Shown piece after piece: positions 2,162-62,682 of a stretch of DNA of 64,000 bases. The stretch comes from Alphaproteobacteria bacterium (GTDB taxonomy: Bacteria > Pseudomonadota > Alphaproteobacteria > CAAHEQ01 > UBA3637), in NCBI GenBank assembly GCA_045660045.1, contig JAZRDB010000007.1, positions 5,180-69,179 of the forward strand. Direction: 5' to 3'. A program made the position numbers and the translations under genes. Under the pieces are notes generated by a model, which worked only from the letters and a program-made list of their open reading frames with translations, searched no databases and had not been told where the DNA came from. Numbering within the stretch: the stretch's first letter is position 1; each line of letters starts with the position of its first letter.

Positions 2162-2192
2162 CAAAAAAAGAGGGCCAATGGCCCTCCTTTCT
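2162..2192. terminator. Bidirectional intrinsic terminator between convergent genes
   Basis: GAGGGCC-AAT-GGCCCTC hairpin at 2170-2186, with an A7 run on one side and a T-rich tract on the other. Confidence 0.6.
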
Positions 2193-4798
2193 TACATTGG
2201 TGTACAATTCCCCGTTCCCGAACATTTATAACGATCAATGCTAGACTTGCTTGGTTTATTAATAATCACCAAATAGCCAGAACTCGACGTCCTTTTGGCC
2301 TTAAACAGCTTCGTCGTTGTATTCCCCGGACAATAAAAATCACTCCACGTACACTTGTCCTGTATACAAATTTCACCATTCCACGTTTTCTTCACTGTCC
2401 CCGCAGAATCGGCAACTTTTCCACTAAAACGAGCGCTTGTGTCTGTTGCCGAACTAAATGTTCTGAAACATTTATTTGGGCACAACCAAACATTTGCATA
2501 TGTATCTGTGGTTGCCGTTTTACCAGATCCTTTGCACGCTTTACATGCGGTGCCATCCTTATAACATTCCGCATTGCAAGTAAAGGATGTTGCGTCCTTG
2601 CCAGAACATGTGGCACAAGATGGGCAATTTTGACACGTGCCATTAAGAATCACCTTTCCGCTTGGACAGAAACAAGCGCTTGCTGCCGTTTTGGCTGTTC
2701 CATCTGTTGTTTTCCCATTGGGGCATTTCGTGGCTCCCGTATTTGCTATCACATCTTTATACCACCCCTTTGCAACAGCCGTACATTCAGTTGCACCGCT
2801 TTTAAGTTCATATCCTTTTTGACACAGACAATTGCTTGTTGATGTGCTGCCTGTGGATGTAGTTGTTGTGTTGGCTCGCCAATCGACGCATTTTTTGGTC
2901 CCAGTGTTTCCTACAACATCTTTATACCATCCCACAGCAACAGCCGTACATGCAGTAGCACCACTTTTAAGTTCATAACCTTTTTTACAAACACAAGAAC
3001 TTGTTGATGTACTGCCTGTGGAGATTGTCGTTGTATTGGCGCGCCAATCAACACATCGTTTGGCGCCCGTGTTTCCTATAGTATTTTTGTACCACCCTGT
3101 GAAAACGGCCGTACAGACCCCTTCTACCATTTCATATCCTTTGTCACAAACACAAGACCCTACACCTTGATTGTTGCCACCATCACAAACTTTATTGGTA
3201 TCGCATGCCGTACCCGCAGCAGCGGGCGTATATACCGCATTTGTTCCCGAAGATGTACATTTTGTTGTACAAGTATCCGCCACAAATCCATCACACCCAT
3301 TTTTACAAGTTTCATCCGATCTCATCACATAACCACTATCACACACCCATGTACCCCTTTCATTATCATTATTTGGATCTCCACAATGCTTATGAGTACT
3401 TGGATTGTTGCCCCAATATCTGTCAACAGGCGCATAAGTATAAACCGCTGTGTGATTCTCTACCCTACATGCTGTTTTACACGTTGTGGCTGTAAAATTA
3501 TTACATGTTTCTATTGGTTTACATTCACCATCATCACATTGTTCGGTTCCTGCACAAGTGCTATCCGCATCACAAACGCAGGTTTGTTTGTCTTCATCCC
3601 AAAAGGGCAGTTTTGTATAACTTCCCTCACCACATTCAAAACAGGTAGACGACGCCCCACGATTATAGGCTGCACCATGGTAACCGTCATTACATTCACA
3701 TTGTTGAGTCTCTTTGTTATACGTTGACTTTCCATCGTTACAAGCCAGTTCACACATATGACTGTCCTCATTACAATATTCGTTACTACCACAGTCGCCA
3801 TCTGTTATACATTCAACACATTGTCCATTATATGCATAAGGTCTGTTGGTCGGACAAGTTGGGCAATTTTCATCGGGATCACAAGCACAGCATTGATTTC
3901 CTTCACAACACTTTTGCCCCTCTTCGCAATCATTGTCAATGTCACAGGCTCCATTGACACATGTACAGGAAGCATCATATAATCCCTTTCCAAGTTCGTT
4001 GGTGCACTGTTCGCCAACCTTCAAACAATCGCATGAGGTGTGATCACTATTCACCACCAACGGAGCCTCGCACGTGTCACAACTTGAATTTTCTGTTGTT
4101 GTTTCTTCCGTACGATATGTGTTACCCGTACAAGGTTTACATGTTTCATCACATGTGCCATATCCCGTTTTATAATACCCCGCACGGCACGTTAACACAC
4201 CATCCGAAACGGATCCTCCACTTGGGATTGTGCGTTCTGGACACCCATCTTCATTCGGATCCTCCTGACTCTGTTGGGGCCTCCACCAAGGATATAAACC
4301 ATGCAAATGATATCCTGGACTTTTTTGGAATAAATATTGCAACACATTCTTTGTTTTGTCCTTTTGGCAAGCTGTAATTTTTTTCCCTGTATCATCTGTT
4401 ATGGCTATTAACCCAATTTCGCTTGTTTTTTTCTCACTTGATTGTATTTCTCGCGACTTTTTTAACATGCTTTCACACACTTCTTGGGTCAACGCATCTG
4501 TCTTCACCCAAAAATAATTGCTCATAGGTCCATCAATACCGTTTTCCACTTCCAAGCCAATGCTGTGCGGACCCTCCCTGGAAATTTTATCTTGCGCATT
4601 TGATGGCTTTGCTTGCAAAGCGTGTTGACGAATCACAGCTTCTTCCATCACCGCCGTCGTCAAATCTTTGGCTATCACGTCAGAACGTAACAAGCCCCAA
4701 ACATGGAATCCTCCCAATGTCAACAACATTAACAGGGCTAACACCCCTAACATTTCCAACATACTGCGTCCAGATTCGTTCTTCTTGTTTTTCTTCAT
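2192..4798 (-). CDS. Cysteine-rich modular prepilin-like surface protein (868 aa)
   Basis: AAGGAG SD precedes ATG 4798. The N-terminus MKKNKKNESG/RSMLEMLGVLALLMLLTLGG has a basic tip, a Gly, a Glu at +5 and a ~20-residue hydrophobic helix, matching the class III (type IV prepilin) signal pattern. About 76 of ~78 Cys (hand count) lie after residue ~190, in CxxC, CxC and C-x-G-Y motifs. There are three 55-aa tandem units near the C-terminal third. Confidence 0.8.
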   Translation of the reverse strand: MKKNKKNESGRSMLEMLGVLALLMLLTLGGFHVWGLLRSDVIAKDLTTAVMEEAVIRQHALQAKPSNAQDKISREGPHSIGLEVENGIDGPMSNYFWVKTDALTQEVCESMLKKSREIQSSEKKTSEIGLIAITDDTGKKITACQKDKTKNVLQYLFQKSPGYHLHGLYPWWRPQQSQEDPNEDGCPERTIPSGGSVSDGVLTCRAGYYKTGYGTCDETCKPCTGNTYRTEETTTENSSCDTCEAPLVVNSDHTSCDCLKVGEQCTNELGKGLYDASCTCVNGACDIDNDCEEGQKCCEGNQCCACDPDENCPTCPTNRPYAYNGQCVECITDGDCGSNEYCNEDSHMCELACNDGKSTYNKETQQCECNDGYHGAAYNRGASSTCFECGEGSYTKLPFWDEDKQTCVCDADSTCAGTEQCDDGECKPIETCNNFTATTCKTACRVENHTAVYTYAPVDRYWGNNPSTHKHCGDPNNDNERGTWVCDSGYVMRSDETCKNGCDGFVADTCTTKCTSSGTNAVYTPAAAGTACDTNKVCDGGNNQGVGSCVCDKGYEMVEGVCTAVFTGWYKNTIGNTGAKRCVDWRANTTTISTGSTSTSSCVCKKGYELKSGATACTAVAVGWYKDVVGNTGTKKCVDWRANTTTTSTGSTSTSNCLCQKGYELKSGATECTAVAKGWYKDVIANTGATKCPNGKTTDGTAKTAASACFCPSGKVILNGTCQNCPSCATCSGKDATSFTCNAECYKDGTACKACKGSGKTATTDTYANVWLCPNKCFRTFSSATDTSARFSGKVADSAGTVKKTWNGEICIQDKCTWSDFYCPGNTTTKLFKAKRTSSSGYLVIINKPSKSSIDRYKCSGTGNCTPM
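2714..3115 (-). repeat. In-frame 165-nt tandem repeat, about 2.4 copies, inside the 868-aa gene
   Basis: Copy boundaries fall at the Cys codons at 3115, 2950 and 2785. Each unit encodes CTAV..GWYK....NTG..KCVDWRANTTT.STGSTSTS.C.C.KGYELKSGAT. (55 aa). The third copy diverges after about 24 aa. Confidence 0.85.
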
Positions 4799-4807
4799 TT
4801 TTTCTCC

Positions 4808-7249
4808 TTATGCTCGTTTCAAATATTCTTGAACCAGTTGATCTACGTCTGTAATTTCAGATTGTAATTTTTCCGCCAATAAAATATTTTTACTACCAGA
4901 TGAATAAACTTTCAAATAGGATCCTAAACCGGACAAATCTACATCTAAAATAACAGATTCATGGATGGCCGGTCGGCTGACCAAAATAGCGTATTTTCTG
5001 TCCGCCCACTCTTTGCCTAGAATAAAGTTTAATTCACGCGGTGTCAAGTTCCATGTTGCATAATCGGATGGGTTCGCCTGTGGATTTCGGAAGAAAACGA
5101 CTGTTTGACATTGACCACGAATCACATCACCCAAGCCCGCTTCATCCAAAAATTTCGGTTGCTGGAACGCACAAAGATATGCTTGACGTTTTTTACGTCC
5201 TTCTCGAAGCCCTACGATAAAGCTTTCTTTAAACATTGGGTGTTCCAACATTGGCGCCGTTTCATCGATCATAATCATACTGGGCGCACCGGTTGAACTG
5301 GCCAATTCATCAATACGGTGCATGATATAGCTGATGACCGCAGGCGCCAAAGATTTATTGCTATCATTAAAGATGCTTGTAAAATCAAACGCCACATAAC
5401 GGTTTGTTAAATCCAGATTGTCTTCAGGCGAGTTAAAAATATTACCATATTGATCCGGATCAATCCATCTGTTCAATTCACGACGCATATAACCGTTTGG
5501 CGCAAAACACGCTTTGTATAAATTCTTTAACATACGATCACTTTTCGGCAAATACTCAAAAGCCGTCACAACCGCACGAGCAATTTCAGTTTCAGAAACA
5601 GCATCCTTTCCTTCTGTGATATCGCGCAACCAACCGCGCAAAAAGGCTCTGTTCGGCAAATTATCTTCAATTAAAAATGGATTTAAAGAAACAGATTCCT
5701 CGCCATCAAACTTGATGTATGGCGCCCCATTCACCACAGCAAAAACCTTGGCACCTTTATTACGATCAAAGAAGTATGTATGCAAATCTGGGATACGCAT
5801 TGCCTGAGAGGCAATAAAGCTGAAGAATGTTGTTTTACCTTGACCGGTCGGACCAATCAAGGCGGTATGTGCCACTGCGTACTGTTCCTCTGTAACATGG
5901 AATTGGAAAGCATACGGCGTTCCGGTAATCGTCCTAAAATAAGATAACGGAACCGGACCCCAGTCTGATTTCTTGCGACCTTCGGACGGTTGATCAATCA
6001 TCGTCGCACAGGCAACCACATTGGAAAGGTATAAATATGTTCTTGGGTACACATCATAGGTTGGGAATTGGTTAAAGAAAACAGCCTGTGCGGACCATCC
6101 CTCACGCACCGGTGTCACGTTATGAATACGACAAATACGCTCTACCTCTTCTTGACCAAACTTCAATTCGTCAGGCGAATCTCCATATAAAATCATGGAC
6201 ATTGCATATTCATTTAATGTTTGGCTGTCCGCGTCCGTGGCATCCAACGACGCCAACGCTTCATTATATTGGTCCAACACGTTTTGAGAAAAACTTGTCA
6301 TATAGGCCATTTTACGTTGGTTAAGTAAAAGTGCTGTCGACTTGGACATTGGAACAGCTTTAATATTATGCAAAAAGACCATTTCCATATCAATGCTCAA
6401 CAAATCCGCCACCATTTGTTCGTCCATATAATCACCCGGCTTTCTTATCCCCATCATGATGGCTAATTTTTCTCGATCACCCGCAAAGAAACGCACAATT
6501 CCTTCGTCCTTGGTAAAATGAACGTAATCTGATGTTAAAAGCACATTCAAATAATCGCCTTGTTCTCCATGAATAAGCGGCTTTGGACGAGAAAGCGGAC
6601 TTGCCAACCGAGCAAACACCCATAAAGGACTTCTATCTTCTTGATTTACACCTTCTTTTTCTGTTAACAAAACGGGATTATACATATCCAAAATGGAAGT
6701 CAACGCATTGGATGCCTGTTCTAAATCACGCATAGCTTCCTTACGATCGTTCACGCTGATAATAATGTAGTGACGATTTTTAAAGATACGATGCATATTT
6801 TCCATCCACAATTCATCGATCTTGTGTAATAATTTGTTATCTTGAAAGGCCTCCATTGTGTCTAATTGAACTTTATCGCGCACCGTCATCATGCGCACAA
6901 CAATTTCCAATTCTGCCATAGAATCAATCCAGCGTTTTCTGGCACTTGTCAAGGATACACGATCTTCCGGAGCCATCAAGGTGCTGTCTACACCTTTTAC
7001 CTCAAACACACGCGCCAACGCACCATTTCTCAGATGAATAGTTGCGCCATCTTCATCTAATTTTTCAAACGGCAAAAAGTCGGAAAGACGTGTTTCTTTT
7101 GGCTTTGGCAATACCCACTCACCAATTTTTGTCACGGATGCAAACGCCAACAACACGGCAGATATCAACCCCAAAACCGCCAAAACCATCGGAGTCGAGG
7201 TAGCGCTCGTCAAGATAAAATCAATTATGTTCGCGTCTATATTATTCAT
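4808..7249 (-). CDS. virB4: Type IV secretion system ATPase VirB4/TrbE/CagE family
   Basis: 813 aa with an N-terminal TM segment. It has Walker A LIGPTGQGKTT, Walker B-like MIMIDETAP and GRKKRQAYLCAFQQP. AAGGA SD. The start lies 12 nt after the virB3 stop. Confidence 0.85.
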   Translation of the reverse strand: MNNIDANIIDFILTSATSTPMVLAVLGLISAVLLAFASVTKIGEWVLPKPKETRLSDFLPFEKLDEDGATIHLRNGALARVFEVKGVDSTLMAPEDRVSLTSARKRWIDSMAELEIVVRMMTVRDKVQLDTMEAFQDNKLLHKIDELWMENMHRIFKNRHYIIISVNDRKEAMRDLEQASNALTSILDMYNPVLLTEKEGVNQEDRSPLWVFARLASPLSRPKPLIHGEQGDYLNVLLTSDYVHFTKDEGIVRFFAGDREKLAIMMGIRKPGDYMDEQMVADLLSIDMEMVFLHNIKAVPMSKSTALLLNQRKMAYMTSFSQNVLDQYNEALASLDATDADSQTLNEYAMSMILYGDSPDELKFGQEEVERICRIHNVTPVREGWSAQAVFFNQFPTYDVYPRTYLYLSNVVACATMIDQPSEGRKKSDWGPVPLSYFRTITGTPYAFQFHVTEEQYAVAHTALIGPTGQGKTTFFSFIASQAMRIPDLHTYFFDRNKGAKVFAVVNGAPYIKFDGEESVSLNPFLIEDNLPNRAFLRGWLRDITEGKDAVSETEIARAVVTAFEYLPKSDRMLKNLYKACFAPNGYMRRELNRWIDPDQYGNIFNSPEDNLDLTNRYVAFDFTSIFNDSNKSLAPAVISYIMHRIDELASSTGAPSMIMIDETAPMLEHPMFKESFIVGLREGRKKRQAYLCAFQQPKFLDEAGLGDVIRGQCQTVVFFRNPQANPSDYATWNLTPRELNFILGKEWADRKYAILVSRPAIHESVILDVDLSGLGSYLKVYSSGSKNILLAEKLQSEITDVDQLVQEYLKRA

Positions 7250-7261
7250 TCAATTCCTTTG

Positions 7262-7555
7262 TTATGGCGCCAGCTTTACACCCCGCTGCTTGTAAATGTT
7301 ATGGCTTGTCGCTGGACCGTTTGTTCCCCACGCTTGCAACATATGGGATAGGTGGGGTTCTCGTGTGCCTGCAATAACCAAAAAAATATGTCCAAGTAAA
7401 ATTGTAATCAATGAAACCAATGGGTTTACATTAAACATACCAATCAAGATAAACATCCACGCCGCCTGAATTACAAAGTTAGCCATGGCGGGAATAAATG
7501 GTGCCAAGAAAATACGGGGCGGCATAGCAACTGCTCTTAAAATTGGTTCGCGCAT
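7262..7555 (-). CDS. virB3: VirB3-like small inner-membrane T4SS protein
   Basis: 97 aa with two hydrophobic segments. The pattern EPILRAVAMPPRIF...ANFVIQ...GHIFLVIAGTREPHL matches the VirB3 layout, and the gene sits directly upstream of virB4. GGAGA SD. Confidence 0.65.
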   Translation of the reverse strand: MREPILRAVAMPPRIFLAPFIPAMANFVIQAAWMFILIGMFNVNPLVSLITILLGHIFLVIAGTREPHLSHMLQAWGTNGPATSHNIYKQRGVKLAP

Positions 7556-10893: not shown

Positions 10894-11397
10894 ATGAATC
10901 AAATGATAAACATATTCAAACAAGCTCGTGAAAAAGAGGATGTAACCTTTTTTGATGCAAGGCAAAAAGCCACCGCTTTGGTCCGCGCGCCGCTTTCTTT
11001 TGATCAACGTAAAGAAGGGTGGTTAAATGTTTTCGGACGCGAAAACCCTAACACTGGCAAAAAAGAAACAACTGATGATTTTTGGATTGAACGCAGTGCC
11101 AATGATACGACAGCTTTGTTTTTGTGTTTTTCAAACGGATTAAAAATTGAAGATAGAGATCACACTGTTTCCTTTGGTGCCTATGTCAGCAAGGCAACCG
11201 TTGACCAACCGAGAGCCGTTCAAGCTGTGCGGATGGCCGCAAATCATTTATATCGCCGCGGAGACCGTTTAGAGATTGGCAGCAACTATACTGGTTCTGG
11301 TCCTTATATGCAAGCCTTTGAAAAAGCTTCCTTGGAAGCTCGGAAAATAATTACTCAAGAACAGTTAAAAAAGATAGCAGAGGCCACGAAAGAATAA
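10894..11397 (+). CDS. Hypothetical protein (167 aa) co-oriented with gatCAB
   Basis: GAGGTG SD. No motif that I recognise. Terminator immediately downstream. Confidence 0.6.
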   Translation: MNQMINIFKQAREKEDVTFFDARQKATALVRAPLSFDQRKEGWLNVFGRENPNTGKKETTDDFWIERSANDTTALFLCFSNGLKIEDRDHTVSFGAYVSKATVDQPRAVQAVRMAANHLYRRGDRLEIGSNYTGSGPYMQAFEKASLEARKIITQEQLKKIAEATKE

Positions 11398-34416: not shown

Positions 34417-35544
34417 ATGTTACATACAACAATCAATTCTGCTGAGAAAAGATATAAAAAATCCAAAGATGTAAAGAAAAATATTGTTTTAAGTTTTCGT
34501 ACATGTGAAAATGGTTGTCCAAAGGAATCCTATTTTTTGAATTTAAAAGGAGTGCAAGAAAAGCCCTCAAAACGGCGGAACAGATATGTTGTTAAACAAT
34601 TTGCGAAAATGGGCAAATTGGATGAGATTTTATCTCCCGAGACATTGAAACAAGCAACGGAAGAAGGTGTTTTGCCGCCCCCGTATGTGGTAGATTATAA
34701 AGTGCCGTTAGATTTGGGCGGTTCAAGCAATGTGAGCAATATGTATGTTGTGGATAGAAATGTGGCGGAATTGATGGATGTCCTTTATTGGCGTCAGATT
34801 CGTCTGGAAGTGAATGCGGCTTGTCACGATCGTGATCAAAAACACCAAAAGCCACCAAGAATTATAGTTTCTTTTGCACAATTGCCGCGACTTTTTACTC
34901 AAGAAAAATTTTTAGAGTATATTTTGCCGCATGAACGTAAGGGGTTGCAAAAATACTTGAATCAGAAAGCGACACAAGAAGCGATAAAAAATGAAAAAGT
35001 TTCTGTGCAGGTTTTGCCAGACGGAAGCGAACTATGGCGTCTTTTAGCGCAAGAAATGTTGCCAAGCGGTTTAAGACGAGCCATTATAAAGGTTGCGCCT
35101 CGTTTGTGGGTGGAACGCAATCGGTTGCGTGGAGAATATATCAAAATGCGCCCTAAAATTGTTTTGGCGTCATTGCGGCGGGGTGATTTTAAAGATTTGC
35201 CCATTGCAACACAGCGTCAAATTCGAACGAGGGAGCGTGTGCCTGGTTATGTTGGTCGAACCTGTCACCACATTTTGCCATTAGCATTGGGTGGTGAAAA
35301 TGAAATGACAAATATCTGTTGGTTGAATGAGCGCGTTCATACATTGCTTCATCAAAAGTTCATTTCGCCGTATGAAACCCATATGCATGGAATGGTTGAT
35401 GTGCCACAAAATTTGTTTTTTGAAATACCAATTCCTTCGGATGCAAAAATTCAAACATATACCATATCACGCCATGGTGCAGTTGTTCTAAACAAGCTTC
35501 CTGCAACAGAAAAGAAAGCTTCAAAACCACAGAATACCCATTGA
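34417..35544 (+). CDS. Hypothetical HNH-motif protein with a second, degenerate HNH-like segment
   Basis: 375 aa starting 1 nt after the phoB stop. The C-terminal CHHILPLALGGENEMTNICWLNERVHTLLH is an HNH motif. VVDYKVPLDLGGSSNVSNMYVV near residue 95 looks like an inactivated copy. Confidence 0.65.
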   Translation: MLHTTINSAEKRYKKSKDVKKNIVLSFRTCENGCPKESYFLNLKGVQEKPSKRRNRYVVKQFAKMGKLDEILSPETLKQATEEGVLPPPYVVDYKVPLDLGGSSNVSNMYVVDRNVAELMDVLYWRQIRLEVNAACHDRDQKHQKPPRIIVSFAQLPRLFTQEKFLEYILPHERKGLQKYLNQKATQEAIKNEKVSVQVLPDGSELWRLLAQEMLPSGLRRAIIKVAPRLWVERNRLRGEYIKMRPKIVLASLRRGDFKDLPIATQRQIRTRERVPGYVGRTCHHILPLALGGENEMTNICWLNERVHTLLHQKFISPYETHMHGMVDVPQNLFFEIPIPSDAKIQTYTISRHGAVVLNKLPATEKKASKPQNTH

Positions 35545-46698: not shown

Positions 46699-47277
46699 AT
46701 GCTTGATGAGTCTGTAAAAAGAATTTTGGATTCTCCCGTGAATTTGCTTCGTCCCTCAAGCGAAACAGAAAGGCAATTACTTTTTCCAAAGAACTGCAAG
46801 GGTGTTTTTTATACCATAGGATTGCAATCTGGACAAAGTTTTGTGGCACAGTTTCCGGGACACAATGAACAGGATGATCCATTTTCTTTGGACAACTTTG
46901 CTTTTTTGTTGCGCCCGTTGAAAAATTTAGTGCCGCAATTAGAGGAAGTTAAGTGGTTATTTACGGGTAGCATTGCTGGGTCTGGAACACGGACGATTTG
47001 TGAGTTGACTCCTGAAACAACAAAGCAAGAAAGAGTGGTTTTGGAGAATATATTTGCATCACATGAGGTGCAATCGAATTATTCCGGCAGACGATCTTAT
47101 AGTCATCATGAAATGTTTGTTAAGTTGCACGATGTATATAATCAATTGATGGAAAACGATCGCTTGAAACATGCATTGATGGTGGGACAACAAAGACTTC
47201 ATGATTTAATGATAGAAAAAAAAGATAATAATCCAGCAAATCCAGTGATCCGACGCACAGAGAACGAAAGGGGCTAA
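46699..47277 (+). CDS. Hypothetical protein, paralog 1 (192 aa), inside the rpsB-tsf operon
   Basis: The ATG lies 1 nt after the rpsB stop. The N-terminus MLDESVKRILDSPVNLLRPSSETERQL...GVFYTIGLQSGQSFV parallels the next gene. Confidence 0.7.
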   Translation: MLDESVKRILDSPVNLLRPSSETERQLLFPKNCKGVFYTIGLQSGQSFVAQFPGHNEQDDPFSLDNFAFLLRPLKNLVPQLEEVKWLFTGSIAGSGTRTICELTPETTKQERVVLENIFASHEVQSNYSGRRSYSHHEMFVKLHDVYNQLMENDRLKHALMVGQQRLHDLMIEKKDNNPANPVIRRTENERG

Positions 47278-47283
47278 GCAAAA

Positions 47284-47910
47284 ATGGCAGAACAATCTGT
47301 AAAACAAATTTTAACAGCTCCCATTGTTTTTCTTCGCCCTTCAAACGAAGAAGAGAGAAGGCTTTATTGTGATCAGCCGAATGGTGGATGGTTTTATACG
47401 TTTGGTTTAAAATCTGGTATCAATTATGTAACGCGCATTGATAAAAAAAGAGATGTGTTTACATTTCGTCCTTTAGATAGAACTATCACGACTCCGTTGG
47501 TGCAATTTCAGTGGAAGTCTACACGTACAGAATTTCCTGCGCTTTTCCCTGAGTTTGATGTTGTTTGTCAAACAGCTCCCGGAACATCGCAAAAAGAGAC
47601 AGAATGGTTTGAAAAAATTTTGGGACCGTCAGCGGAAGAATTAAAAGTTAAAGCAGCATTTGGTCTTTTGCAAACAACGTGCTATCGTTTTCATTACCCA
47701 GAAGTATTGACGAAAGTGGTGGCCATAAAGAAACAAATAAAAGAAAATGAATACTGGCAACGACAAGCATTGAAACAGGAAAAAGAGATAAAAAGAATAT
47801 TGCTAAAGGGGCACGCAAAATTACAAGAATTGATGATCCCGAATAACTCTACACAAAACAAAATCGTTCAACAAAAAACAATACAAGAAAGGAGAAAACA
47901 AAATGGCTGA
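47284..47910 (+). CDS. Hypothetical protein, paralog 2 (208 aa), inside the rpsB-tsf operon
   Basis: The N-terminus reads MAEQSVKQILTAPIVFLRPSNEEERRL...GWFYTFGLKSGINYV. The stop overlaps the tsf start by 8 nt. Confidence 0.7.
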   Translation: MAEQSVKQILTAPIVFLRPSNEEERRLYCDQPNGGWFYTFGLKSGINYVTRIDKKRDVFTFRPLDRTITTPLVQFQWKSTRTEFPALFPEFDVVCQTAPGTSQKETEWFEKILGPSAEELKVKAAFGLLQTTCYRFHYPEVLTKVVAIKKQIKENEYWQRQALKQEKEIKRILLKGHAKLQELMIPNNSTQNKIVQQKTIQERRKQNG

Positions 47911-50106: not shown

Positions 50107-52300
50107 TTAGTATGGACATTGGCTTATAGATGCCCATTTAAAGCATTCGCCACTGCTGTTTGCACTAGACCAACCATTTTTGCCGCAGGTTCCATTGTGT
50201 TGATTGTTATCTGTTCTGCATTGGTTTCCATCCGCTTTCCAGTTGCTATTATACTTTGCCCGGCATGCAGCATTTAAGGTCATACAGCCTCCGCTTCCAT
50301 CTGAGCAATAGGTACAACCGCAGGTTTGATTGACACAGACTTCGCAAGTTCCACTGCTGTTACATGTATATGCTGTACTACATCCATTTCTCGTGTTGGG
50401 TTCGCAGGCATAACATGATGTGGCACTTGCAACACCATAAGTACAATATTGGCAAGCACCATTAATAAGTGCGTAGTTGGCCTGACATGAACATAATAGC
50501 GTGTTGTCATTATGAGTGGCATTTGTATAACAGTCGCAGTCGGTATGATTACTGTTTGCTGTTCCGGCACCACAATTAACACAAGAACTACCAGCTTTGC
50601 TTATTGTATTGTTTTGACAAGGAGAACAAGTCGTGCCAACCAATTCATATCCCGCTGGACATACACAGACACTGTCTTGTAATTCGAAATTATCTGGAAC
50701 TGGAGCCTTACCAACAACGACACCACGCACAAGAATAGTCTGAATTTCCCCAAAAGAATGCCTCTCCATCGGATTGACGGCGAGGTGGTACACCATTGAC
50801 ACATAATCCAGAAACAGTTGTTCCAGGATTTTTGCCAGCCAAGTGAGTGCAATATCCTTGATAGCAACGGTATTCGCCAGCACCGTGTACGCAGCCATCG
50901 CCATTAGTTCCTTTAGAAAAGCAAGAATGAAATGGCGAGCAACAGTGACCGGAACAACTTGTGTCATCTGATTTGTTCCAACACCACTCTTTACAAGTGT
51001 GCGTTGTCGTGTCACAAACTGTGCGTCCATCCGTTTTGTTGGCACAATTAGCATTGGAAAGACATTCAACGCAGGTGGTTTTAAAGATTTGAGGATATCC
51101 ATTATTGCAAACACAACTGCCATTCGTGAGAGGGCTAGCATTTGTGTAGCAGGTACAAGCTGTTTGTGTCCCGTTCGGCGTGCCAGCCCCACAAGAAATC
51201 GAGATGTTGTTTGGACAGATGGTGCCGGCTGGACACGATGTTTGTTCCGATGATCCTTCTGGACAATATTTTCCGGGATCACACGCTGTTGGCTCAATGG
51301 ATCCTTCTGGGCAATAAGATCCCTGTGGACAATTTTCGGGGATAGTCGTGTTGTCTTCGTCACAGAAGCTTCCGGCGGGGCAGGGTGTACAAGTTTTGTT
51401 AACTGGATCTAATACATAGCCAGCTGGGCAATAACATCCCGATTCGTCTGACGTCTTTAAAAAAGGAGCCGTGCAGTTGAAAGTATCGCCAGATCCCCCT
51501 GGACAAGTGGCATATTCTGGACATTCAATGCAAACGCCATCGACCAGATAATATCCGGATTGGCACTTGGTGCAAACATCCTCGGCTTGGTCACATTCGG
51601 AACATGACTCGGGACAACAATTTCCCTTTTTACATCCACCTTTTGTGACGCATTCGCCTTGGAAGCAAACTTGATCGTCAGTACAATCACACGACGGCGG
51701 ATCAACACAGATACCGTTTTGACAAGAACGTGAGGCAGGACAATCGGAATTGCTTGAGCAGGTCTTTGGAATATAACTGCCTTTTGCCCCTGTGTTTTTT
51801 GAAAAAGTAACTTGAATAGTGTTGGTGCTATCACATTCTGGTGCCCCGACAATTTGGCCTTTTGTGTTTTGTTCCGTTGATATTTTATAGGTTGTATTAT
51901 TAACCTTAATTCGATCAGCCCCAGCCCAAGATTGTCTTAACAATCTTTTGCAGGTTGGTTCATTAATGTCCCCTACAAAATAAGAATAATAATAACCATC
52001 AGCTTCTTCTGAAGCGGTTATTTCTTTGCCATTTCTTGTGGCCGTCACAAATTGACCTTCTACATTTTTTTTGGCGTTCTTATCAAATAAATCGGTTGCA
52101 AATAATTTTTTTTGACCTGGTTTGCCCTCCTGATTTAATTTGCCTCTGGCCATCAAATCGTCGTGAATAATTGCGGCATCGTGGGAAGCCATAGCCCATT
52201 GGTAAATTTTAAGACCACCTAATGATATTAGCGTCATAAGCGCAAAAATGGCAATCATTTCCAACAAACTGCGCCCAGATTCATTTAAAGATTTTTGCAT
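50107..52300 (-). pseudogene. Second cysteine-rich modular prepilin-like gene, split by a 1-nt frameshift (about 730 aa if repaired)
   Basis: True start ATG 52300 (AGGGAGA SD), with leader MQKSLNESG/RSLLEMIAIFALMTLISLGG. The Cys-rich frame of track ORF 50708-52444 continues in the frame of ORF 50107-51363. Deleting one base in the TTTTGGGG tract (50748-50755) joins ...DGEAFF to GEIQTILVRGVVVGK... Contains repeats of the type CPAGSFC, CPQGSYCPEGS and CDPGKYCPEGS. Confidence 0.7.
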
Positions 52301-52322
52301 GATTTTTCTCCCTGTTAATTTC

Positions 52323-61172: not shown

Positions 61173-61203
61173 AGCGCCCCCGGTTTTACGGGGCGTTTTT
61201 TTG
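61173..61203 (+). terminator. Intrinsic terminator after pnp
   Basis: GCGCCCC(CG)-GTTTTA-CGGGGCG hairpin followed by T8. Confidence 0.8.
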
Positions 61204-61275
61204 TGTGCTGTCCATAAAAACTTCTTGCAAAATATTCAGAAAAAGGTAATGATAAAGAAAAAGAGGAGGTTTCTT

Positions 61276-62682
61276 ATGTTTGAACGCTTTTTACATGGGG
61301 TATCAAAAACAACAGCGGAAAAGCCAACATCCGCGCCAAAAGCACCATCAAGCGCGCCTGTGCGTCCAGCTATGACAGCCCCTGTACAGCCCGTATCAAC
61401 ACCTGTTGCTGAACCTTCTGCAGCGCCAACCGAACCGATGATTGATTCTACCAATCCAACGGCTCGTCCACCGATGGCACACACTCCAATGCAAGGAAAT
61501 GAAATGCCGTCTGCAAATATTGTGCCAGAATTACCGGACGAAGAGGAAGCTCCAGAAGATGCTTTGCCTGTCAACGAAGAACCAGATAGTACGCCAGCGC
61601 CAGAGCCTCCGTCATTTTTAAAAACGCCAGAACAGACGAAAGTAGGAGATAGTGAAGTAGTTGAAAAAAAGGCGCCAGTAGTGCAGCCATCCATAGGGGC
61701 AGTTAAAGAACCAGAAACGGTTAAAGGCGAATCATTGCATACCGTCGATTTTGCGGATATTTGGTATACGCCAGAAGGAAAGGCTTATGTGCGGGACAGG
61801 ACAACACGATTTGCTTTGACACCTATTGAAACGGATGATTTGGAAGATTTTCATAAAGTCTTGGAACAAGGTTATACAGGGATATCAAGCTATGCTGTTC
61901 GTTTTGCGGGTGATTCCTATCGTGTGGAACGCGTCAATACCTTGGACGGCATTCAATTTAACTGTCGTAAAATGCCAACCACAACGCCGGAAATCGAAAC
62001 ACTTGGATTTGAACCTGCAATTGTGAAACATTTAACAAGTTTAGGACGATCTTCTGGTTTGTTATTGTTTGCCGGTCCAACGGGACAAGGAAAAACGACG
62101 ACAGTATCTTCCTTAATGAAGCGTTTTTTGGACACGGACGGTGGTTTTTTGTATACGATTGAGGATCCTCCCGAAATGCCATTGTCCGGAATTTACCATT
62201 CTAAAAATGGTGGTTTAGGTCTTTGTAAGCAATCGCCCGTGGAGAACGATCAGTGGGGAGCAGGGTTGAGATCTGCCCTGCGTTCTAAGCCACGGTATAT
62301 CTTGGTGGGCGAAATCAGAACACCAGAAACGGCGAGCCAATGTTTAATTGCGGCAACGTCCGGACACTTGGTGTTGTCCACTATTCACGCAAATGGCGTG
62401 GAAGATGCTTTGAATTCTATCATTAAATATGCGGCATCGACGGGACTGGATAACAGCCTTGTGGCAGACCTTTTGGCTCGGGGTATCTTAGGGGTTGTTT
62501 ACCAACGTTTAGAGGGAACATCAAAATTAAAATTGGTGTATCAATCGGCTTTTGCAAATCCTAATGCTCAAGCAGCCGATCAAATGAGAATGGCCATTCG
62601 TGATACGAATATTAATTTGGCCACATTTATGGAACAACAAAAAACCCGCATGGAGCGTGGGTTGCCAATGTTTAGGGAGTAA
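61276..62682 (+). CDS. PilT/GspE-family (T2SSE) secretion ATPase with a ~190-aa Pro/Ala/Glu-rich N-terminal extension
   Basis: Start refined to ATG 61276 (AGAGGAGG SD). The core carries Walker A GPTGQGKTTT, the Asp box TIEDPPE, Walker B YILVGEIR, the His box GHLVLSTIHAN, and a PilT-like N-domain (YRVERVN...CRKMP). Confidence 0.8.
   Translation: MFERFLHGVSKTTAEKPTSAPKAPSSAPVRPAMTAPVQPVSTPVAEPSAAPTEPMIDSTNPTARPPMAHTPMQGNEMPSANIVPELPDEEEAPEDALPVNEEPDSTPAPEPPSFLKTPEQTKVGDSEVVEKKAPVVQPSIGAVKEPETVKGESLHTVDFADIWYTPEGKAYVRDRTTRFALTPIETDDLEDFHKVLEQGYTGISSYAVRFAGDSYRVERVNTLDGIQFNCRKMPTTTPEIETLGFEPAIVKHLTSLGRSSGLLLFAGPTGQGKTTTVSSLMKRFLDTDGGFLYTIEDPPEMPLSGIYHSKNGGLGLCKQSPVENDQWGAGLRSALRSKPRYILVGEIRTPETASQCLIAATSGHLVLSTIHANGVEDALNSIIKYAASTGLDNSLVADLLARGILGVVYQRLEGTSKLKLVYQSAFANPNAQAADQMRMAIRDTNINLATFMEQQKTRMERGLPMFRE

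Follow-up and report, generated by a model that had tools for sequence, protein, structure and literature searches.

The gene at positions 2192..4798 (minus strand) of the DNA from an uncultured rumen/gut alphaproteobacterium analyzed here, a 64,000-nucleotide stretch of contig JAZRDB010000007.1 (positions 5,180 to 69,179; hereafter the window), raises the question of what purpose a pilin-like N-terminal head serves on a protein that otherwise consists of a giant Cys-rich tail. The open reading frame (ORF) spans 868 codons and is open throughout. Its product carries a class III-type motif at the N terminus, the head falls into a large protein family associated with type IVb pilus genes, the tail is a Cys-rich array of eukaryotic type, and the protein is hypervariable among close relatives. 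We lean towards the view that the gene encodes a modular type IVb-like (PilS/bundlin/TcpA-like) minor or tip pilin that acts as a variable adhesin. The head family, undescribed so far, most likely serves to decorate type IVb pili.

Architecture of the protein

The following parts can be distinguished in the 868-residue protein:

4769..4798, minus strand: leader peptide MKKNKKNESG, residues 1–10, short and positive, with Gly at −1 (sequence, family motif)
4610..4768, minus strand: R+1, S+2, E+5, and hydrophobic α1 helix, residues 11–63 (AlphaFold2 (AF2) model, alignments, hydropathy)
4274..4609, minus strand: globular part of the pilin-like head, residues 64–175, with C108/C144 and the strand-plus-helix motif FWVKTDALTQEVCESMLKK (AF2, alignment, hhalign)
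4244..4291, minus strand: linker PWWRPQQSQEDPNEDG, residues 170–185 (sequence; low predicted local distance difference test (pLDDT) score)
2534..4243, minus strand: Cys-rich array, residues 186–755, of small disulfide-type β-hairpin modules including Ephrin_rec_like units (Pfam, EphA2 match, AF2, Foldseek)
2621..3115, minus strand: three 55-aa repeats from residues 562, 617, and 672, degenerate Ephrin_rec_like units (Tandem Repeats Finder, EphA2 alignment)
2195..2491, minus strand: conserved C-terminal domain of ~100 aa, "type A", CPNKCFRTFS...RYKCSGTGNC (homologue comparison)

The N-terminal sequence MKKNKKNESG ends in a cleavage-type Gly and is followed by RSMLEMLGVLALLMLLTLGG. G10, R11, and E15, together with the hydrophobic stretch 12–37, constitute a class III-type signal, and a hydropathy scan shows this segment (residues ~12–37) to be the only hydrophobic one in the protein. 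Processing by signal peptidase I is unlikely, as the hydrophobic stretch is not followed by an A-x-A-type site and the predicted helix extends as far as residue 63.

Three of the 78 Cys residues (C108, C144, and C186) are located before residue 191, and the other 75 occupy residues 191–868 at a density of one per 9.04 residues (11.1%). This agrees with an earlier note on this DNA, made from the sequence alone, which described residues ~40–190 as nearly Cys-free and about every ninth residue thereafter as Cys. The N-terminal sequence, the linker PWWRPQQSQEDPNEDG, and the Cys motifs listed there can likewise be read in the ORF, the motifs amounting to ten C-x2-C, nine C-x-C, one CPTCP (residue 312), six CxxGY, and two D[GN]DC. 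From C186 onward there are 76 Cys, an even number that makes full disulfide pairing possible. The linker between the head and the array is flexible and acidic; it differs in length among orthologues, and pLDDT drops below 50 at residues 164–167 and 180–182.

The head defines a large family with a nearly invariant leader

Seven heads were combined into a hidden Markov model (HMM), and an exhaustive search of 1.84 billion representative proteins with a cut-off of E ≤ 1e-3 yielded 3,101 representative clusters with lengths of 77–2,356 aa. The head of the window protein is a clear member (HMM E-values down to 1e-85). A second, word-based search retrieved 5,075 proteins, annotated as hypothetical proteins of Alphaproteobacteria with the single exception of a "pseudopilin PulG". 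Many family members are ~150–200 aa long, i.e., of pilin size. As far as source names go, the family appears to be restricted to uncultured gut and rumen Alphaproteobacteria.

In a motif census of 254 family proteins, the pattern R-[ST]-x-x-E-hydrophobic-hydrophobic is present in 245, preceded by Gly at −1 in 244 of these, and the median leader is 11 aa long. R11 and E15 are invariant in the aligned orthologues and paralogues, and an alignment of 56 sequences shows no variation at C108 and C144. Since G−1, R+1, and E+5 are retained throughout conserved orthologues and paralogues, the pattern is more than a product of chance. The earlier note stated that the N terminus fits the prepilin rule except for Arg at +1; the Gly−1/Glu+5 motif stands, but the Arg turns out to be a family rule and not an oddity. 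Large size is also widespread in the family. Among the 254 sampled proteins, 48 have at least 500 aa, and all of these are Cys-rich (4–12% Cys), the largest member comprising 2,356 aa with 281 Cys. A Cys-rich module of ~680 aa, previously considered unusual, is thus not exceptional within the family.

A sequence search against PDB needed a profile of 26 family sequences; a narrow seven-sequence head profile retrieved nothing relevant. With the broader profile, 16 matches were obtained at E ≤ 10, and 12 of them are type IV pilins (geopilin, PilA, PpdD, TcpA, and CofA). All 12 pilin alignments are in register, with family position +2 coinciding with residue 2 of the mature pilin. Alignment of the family with TcpA in hhalign, using a TcpA sequence that was partly entered by hand, gave a probability of 84% over 108 columns that take in the strand-helix motif, with the conserved Cys aligned. 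In the AF2 model of the head, which is based on 56 sequences (pLDDT 79.8), residues 12–63 form a helix, followed by strands at 71–75, 81–86, 95–100, 130–134, and 152–158, and by an extra helix at 105–121.

Association with type IVb pilus machinery

When metagenomes were scanned with canonical small family members, 520 relatives emerged, and 78 loci were kept. Family ORFs often occur in groups of two to four in the metagenome loci. A family pilin is encoded inside type IVb pilus gene clusters in L036, L085, L090, and L075, which associates the family as such with type IV filament machinery. The cluster order is TcpQ (PF10671), PilN-family type IVb secretin (TIGR02520, 3.3e-84), PilO (PF06864), a PilP-like protein, a GspE/PilB-type ATPase, a T2SSF platform protein, a PilS-like protein, the family pilin, and a PilT-like ATPase. 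The operon family pilins match Pfam PilS with 49.4 bits and Bundlin with 42.5 bits (gathering scores about 22), and an HMM built from the heads of the giant proteins alone matches these operon pilins at E 2e-11 to 5e-11. The window protein itself has no match to Pfam PilS (PF08805) or Bundlin (PF05307). Because the operon members match these models and the window protein does not, its head would be assigned to a sister or derived subfamily, predicted to work like a type IVb pilin module. The pilin-like character of the head, proposed in the earlier note, is in any case borne out by the family HMM, by the PilS/Bundlin matches of the operon members, and by the in-register pilin alignments.

The window itself also encodes a counterpart of the PilT-like ATPase of these clusters:

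61201..62682, plus strand: PilT/PilU-like T2SSE ATPase, directly after pnp (PF00437 at 3e-30; TIGR01420 at 1.4e-33)

In a blastp comparison with the ATPases of L085, L075, L090, L086, and L045, the C-terminal core of the window ATPase is 55% identical to the PilT-like ATPase of the clusters (320–324 aa), which suggests that the genome of the window has the same type IVb system. If translated from the first start codon, the window ATPase has a Pro/Ala-rich N-terminal extension of ~175–240 aa.

The PilS-like protein of the clusters is 195–210 aa long and is encoded directly upstream of the family pilin. This neighbor (L036 9265..9897; L085 9247..9834) matches both Pfam PilS and Bundlin with 22–28 bits, is devoid of the G-R-S-x-x-E leader, and may be a non-canonical pilin-like component. 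Multi-transmembrane ORFs close to family genes were considered as prepilin peptidase candidates and turned out to encode unrelated enzymes.

The Cys-rich tail resembles eukaryotic disulfide-ladder domains

The tail of the window protein matches the Pfam model Ephrin_rec_like (PF07699, formerly GCC2_GCC3) with 27.1 bits (gathering score 23.1), most strongly over residues 607–657. A phmmer search of PDB identified the Cys-rich domain of EphA2 by sequence (E 2e-4, 28% identity, 93 columns). The Pfam VSP, furin-like, and EGF models gave no match to the window protein at E ≤ 1. Hence, among the eukaryotic repeat types brought up in the earlier note, the ephrin-receptor likeness is supported above threshold and by EphA2, but the VSP, furin-like, and EGF likenesses are not. 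Tandem Repeats Finder detects a DNA repeat of 165 nt at 2731–3097 (2.2 copies, 79% identity), and this corresponds to the 55-aa protein repeats that start at residues 562, 617, and 672. The repeats follow the pattern CTAV...GWYKD...C.DWRANTTT.STGSTSTS.C.C.KGYELK and are short of two canonical Cys, with CTAV and C-x-D-W replacing C-x-A-C and C-x-E-C, respectively.

In the AF2 model of the whole protein (17 sequences), residues 190–750 are built as short hairpins with pLDDT ~70–89, and the predicted template modeling score of 0.38 is consistent with an elongated chain of modules whose orientation to one another is not fixed. In the final 113 residues the model breaks down; they include the C-terminal domain of ~100 aa (pLDDT ~32), which has no Pfam match and is a candidate distal or tip domain. 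A Foldseek search with the tail model returned only eukaryotic matches, the best listed being the Chlamydomonas mastigoneme protein Mst1 (1.8e-6), together with Eph Cys-rich domains (probability 1.0), the CaSR Cys-rich domain, and TNFRs. A similar repertoire is seen in the 48 family proteins with at least 500 aa, where Pfam identifies Ephrin_rec_like in six, TNFR_ELAPOR1 in three, NCD3G in three, teneurin EGF in two (best 1.6e-46), EGF_2 in two, and F5/8 type C in one; most of these tails have no match.

Hypervariability among close homologues

A full-length search of 5.8 billion proteins identified five homologues in addition to the query. An exact-sequence look-up of the query in a contig index returned no record. 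The leader and head are common to all six proteins, and the C-terminal domain of ~100 aa is present in four, including the query. The "type A" form of this domain is shared at 38–43% identity by P0003, P0005, and P0006, the last of which is otherwise divergent. Among named genomes, "Alphaproteobacteria bacterium UBA3650" and one rumen metagenome-assembled genome (MAG) are the closest. Between the window and the genomes of close relatives, the Cys-rich protein is only 50–61% identical and varies in length from 729 to 1006 aa through gain and loss of modules, as opposed to 96–99% identity for VirB3, VirB4, GatA, and GatB, and 77–83% for UDG; the 97-aa protein in the virB3 position is 98–99% identical in L001 and L005. 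Divergence this extreme, accompanied by reshuffled modules in otherwise near-identical genomes, indicates that the Cys-rich protein, as far as can be judged from these comparisons, is under diversifying selection as a surface-exposed ligand-binding or antigenic protein.

The neighborhood contains a second hypervariable gene. The 167-aa ORF beside gatB (10894..11397, plus strand), which has no Pfam match, shares only ~30% identity with the ORFs at the same position in L001 and L005, where GatA/GatB are 96–98% identical. Near the gene for the divergent homologue P0006, located on a rumen alphaproteobacterial contig, an ankyrin-repeat protein (L003 2578..3060) and a phage-integrase fragment are encoded, which hint at a eukaryote-associated lifestyle.

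Proposed assembly and alternative roles

As a minor or tip pilin, the protein would be inserted into the inner membrane via α1 and cleaved after Gly10 by a prepilin peptidase. About 38 disulfides would form in the periplasm, and the pilin head would dock into the type IVb pilus. Because of the bulk of the protein, docking would be expected at the tip, where the protein would be a minor pilin of low abundance comparable to TcpB, CofB, or R64 PilV. The rigid, disulfide-laddered stalk would then hold the C-terminal domain, a putative adhesin or recognition module, off the cell. No Dsb genes are present among the window ORFs scanned.

Several observations weigh against this assignment. The window protein itself reaches no curated prepilin or pilin threshold. 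The N_methyl scan proposed in the earlier note gave no match at E ≤ 1, neither with PF07963 nor with TIGR02532, and within NCBIfam only NF007800 responded weakly (E 0.0016–0.01), far below its cutoff. At the family level, and in favor of a pilin identity, 26 aligned members gave weak matches to N_methyl in 17 and to TIGR02532 in 13, and NF007800 matched 20. Foldseek comparison of the head model with PDB returned no pilin and nothing at E ≤ 0.001, the best match being an unrelated chaperone (E 0.027). The HMM match between the giant heads and the operon pilins is mostly confined to the leader and α1, and, to our knowledge, Arg at +1 is undescribed for characterized pilins. Furthermore, a cargo of ~690 residues would need to pass through the secretin, the Cys-rich gene is located behind virB3-virB4 and away from pilus genes, and no Peptidase_A24 was seen in the window ORFs or in any fetched locus.

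The main alternative is that the pilin-type leader and α1 serve as an export and anchoring device only, such that the protein would be a membrane-anchored or released Cys-rich receptor or coat, periplasmic or at the surface, that does not polymerize. We regard this as possible but rather doubtful. Precedents exist in archaeal substrate-binding proteins with class III signals, which are anchored or released without polymerization. In line with this type of function, the many family genes lie dispersed between housekeeping genes at a distance from pilus operons, the very large tails of the 48 giant members among 254 (up to 2,356 aa) would be awkward to incorporate into a filament, and the missing Foldseek pilin match for the head fits as well. 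On the other hand, E+5, the head domain, and the Cys pair are kept even in the giant members, which argues for selection on assembly contacts beyond anchoring. The small members are pilins of type IVb operons, and large minor pilins located at the tip are known from type IVb systems (PMC8179133).

A more far-reaching proposal is that uncultured gut and rumen Alphaproteobacteria possess a distinct type IVb branch, characterized by the G-R-S-x-x-E leader, and use it to display a variable coat or a mimic of host or protist receptors with modules acquired from eukaryotes. The minor pilins in such a branch may constitute a fast-diversifying multigene family with ectodomains resembling Eph Cys-rich domains, TNFR, NCD3G, and teneurin EGF, of up to 2,356 aa. 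We consider this scenario unlikely in its entirety.

Genomic surroundings and the virB genes

The Cys-rich gene is preceded by two genes that resemble parts of a VirB-type type IV secretion system (T4SS), and a second member of the head family is found elsewhere in the window:

7262..7555, minus strand: 97-aa membrane protein placed like virB3 (judged solely by its length, location, and two hydrophobic segments)
4808..7249, minus strand: virB4, 813 aa, directly upstream of the Cys-rich gene (TIGR00929 at 1.1e-105; PF03135)
4799..4807, minus strand: 9 nt separating the virB4 stop from the start codon, with Shine-Dalgarno sequence TAAGGAGAAAAAATG (sequence)
2170..2186: GC-rich hairpin separating the Cys-rich gene from the convergent UDG gene (terminator scan)
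50107..52303, minus strand: second family member, leader MQKSLNESG/RSLLEM..., with a frameshift at ~50708 (sequence comparison)

The 97-aa ORF has no Pfam, NCBIfam, or PDB match that would identify it as VirB3, and it is therefore labeled by position only. The hairpin at 2170..2186 is likely to mark the end of the transcription unit.

With this arrangement, the Cys-rich protein could be a component or surface adhesin of a VirB-type T4SS, similar to VirB5 or VirB6 and co-transcribed with virB3-virB4. The gene follows virB4 after only 9 nt with a Shine-Dalgarno sequence of its own, no terminator precedes the end of the gene, and the order virB3-virB4-Cys-rich gene is kept in three relatives (L001 and L005/L006), in one case with two tandem copies. 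However, relatives with VirB4 sequences that are 78%, 73%, and 69% identical carry unrelated housekeeping genes after virB3-virB4, and the linkage is thus specific to a clade. The homologue P0006 is encoded beside tig/clpP and not beside virB genes, the second paralogue at 50107..52303 is far from any vir gene, and the head family as a whole is tied to type IVb pilus genes rather than T4SS genes. Neither VirB5 nor VirB6 profiles match the 868-aa protein in Pfam and NCBIfam scans. The T4SS linkage of the gene is probably incidental, and a role in secretion is very unlikely.

It is even harder to believe that the Cys-rich part is a eukaryotic fragment, introduced by assembly chimerism, contamination, or very recent transfer from a protist or an animal: all tail matches are eukaryotic (Ephrin_rec_like, NCD3G, TNFR, teneurin EGF, and the mastigoneme protein), but the ORF is uninterrupted with a bacterial Shine-Dalgarno sequence, the same architecture recurs in independent assemblies from NCBI, ENA, and JGI, and the native composition (GC content 0.435 versus 0.425–0.428 for the neighbors) together with the lack of any eukaryotic protein at E ≤ 1e-3 among the 5.8 billion searched argues against a recent event. 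An ancient acquisition of the module type may have taken place.

The virB3-like/virB4 pair (window 4808..7555, minus strand; loci L001, L005, L013, L014, and L015) is an orphan. In alphaproteobacterial MAGs from gut and rumen, VirB4 forms more than 100 protein clusters with identities of 68–98%, and the pair is apart from other T4SS genes in every locus seen, a scatter reminiscent of Rickettsiales.

In the second family member, ORF A (50708..52303, minus strand) is identical to P0007, contains the same type of leader and head, and ends at a TAA codon. Cys-rich coding resumes in another frame and extends to 50107; this continuation is 61–67% identical to modules of P0027, P0023, and P0044, and ends in a "type B" C-terminal domain that is also present in P0008, P0014, and P0004. 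From this comparison, the interruption at ~50708 is identified as a frameshift, which may represent a pseudogene, an assembly error, or slippage.

Comparison with known modular pilins and Cys-rich proteins

The modular pilin is already known as a kind of protein, and the closest functional parallels to the role that we favor, a tip-located type IVb-like adhesin, are TcpB of Vibrio cholerae, CofB of the enterotoxigenic Escherichia coli (ETEC) CFA/III pilus, and PilV of the IncI1 plasmid R64 thin pilus. These proteins likewise consist of a pilin module, a linker, and binding C-terminal domains, and are expected at the pilus tip; in PilV, the C-termini are variable. The relationship extends to the gene clusters, as the small members of the head family match PilS/Bundlin and share the TcpQ/PilN-secretin/PilO cluster type, and TcpA and CofA both align to the family profile. 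The differences are also pronounced. In place of β-repeat or lectin domains, the window protein has a disulfide-rich tail of ~690 aa and eukaryotic type, its leader is 10 aa long with the invariant Arg+1, and its gene is outside the pilus operon. Moreover, the family is a multigene one with dozens of variants, and no shufflon is evident.

A survey of modular pilins described more than 1,200 proteins with 264 architectures, the largest of 860 residues with 12 repeats (Raynaud et al. 2021, PMC8179133). In Streptococcus sanguinis, PilB (vWA module) and PilC (lectin module) have a proposed role in adhesion (PMC8179133), and as in the window protein a functional module is attached to a pilin carrier via a short linker. 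Cys-rich cargo of the Ephrin_rec_like, TNFR, or NCD3G type is not met with in the parts of the survey considered here. Since the survey relied on the IPR012902 signature, which is not triggered by the window protein, the head family would have been invisible to it.

With respect to the tail, the common feature with the Cys-rich domains of Eph, TNFR, and CaSR (NCD3G) and with Mst1 is an elongated ladder of disulfide-bonded hairpins. Unlike these eukaryotic ectodomains, the bacterial window protein is joined to a pilin head and lacks a kinase, a transmembrane segment, or other eukaryotic context. Giardia variant-specific surface proteins and ciliate surface antigens are large, rapidly varying families of CXXC-rich surface proteins. 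The analogy with the Giardia proteins is functional only, as Pfam VSP does not match, the anchoring is different, and switching is not evidenced.

No paper containing the leader strings of the head family was found in the searchable literature, and a literature search for Ephrin_rec_like or GCC2_GCC3 in bacteria gave nothing relevant. The invariant Arg+1 leader, the size of the family and its apparent confinement to uncultured gut and rumen Alphaproteobacteria, and the giant, fast-evolving, eukaryote-like cargo appear to be undescribed there. Modular pilins are a recognized bacterial route to varied pilus binding, and the present family has been missed so far because it escapes the standard prepilin signatures. 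Its cargo is by far the most cysteine-rich and most eukaryote-like seen on a pilin scaffold. Thousands of clusters from gut and rumen metagenomes belong to the family, which evolves much more rapidly than the genome around it. Should these proteins be displayed on type IVb pili, they would be prime candidates for adhesins to host cells, protists, or mucus in widespread uncultured gut Alphaproteobacteria, and would offer a tractable case of eukaryote-type disulfide-ladder domains that fold in a bacterial periplasm.

Other genes in the window

Two further regions deserve mention. A 375-aa ORF (34417..35544, plus strand) between a response-regulator gene and thrS has a weak match to HNH endonucleases (E 3.7e-4), slightly below threshold. 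At 46699..47277 and 47284..47910 (plus strand), a pair of tandem paralogues without Pfam match (26% identity, E 1e-17) is inserted between rpsB and tsf, two genes that are usually adjacent.

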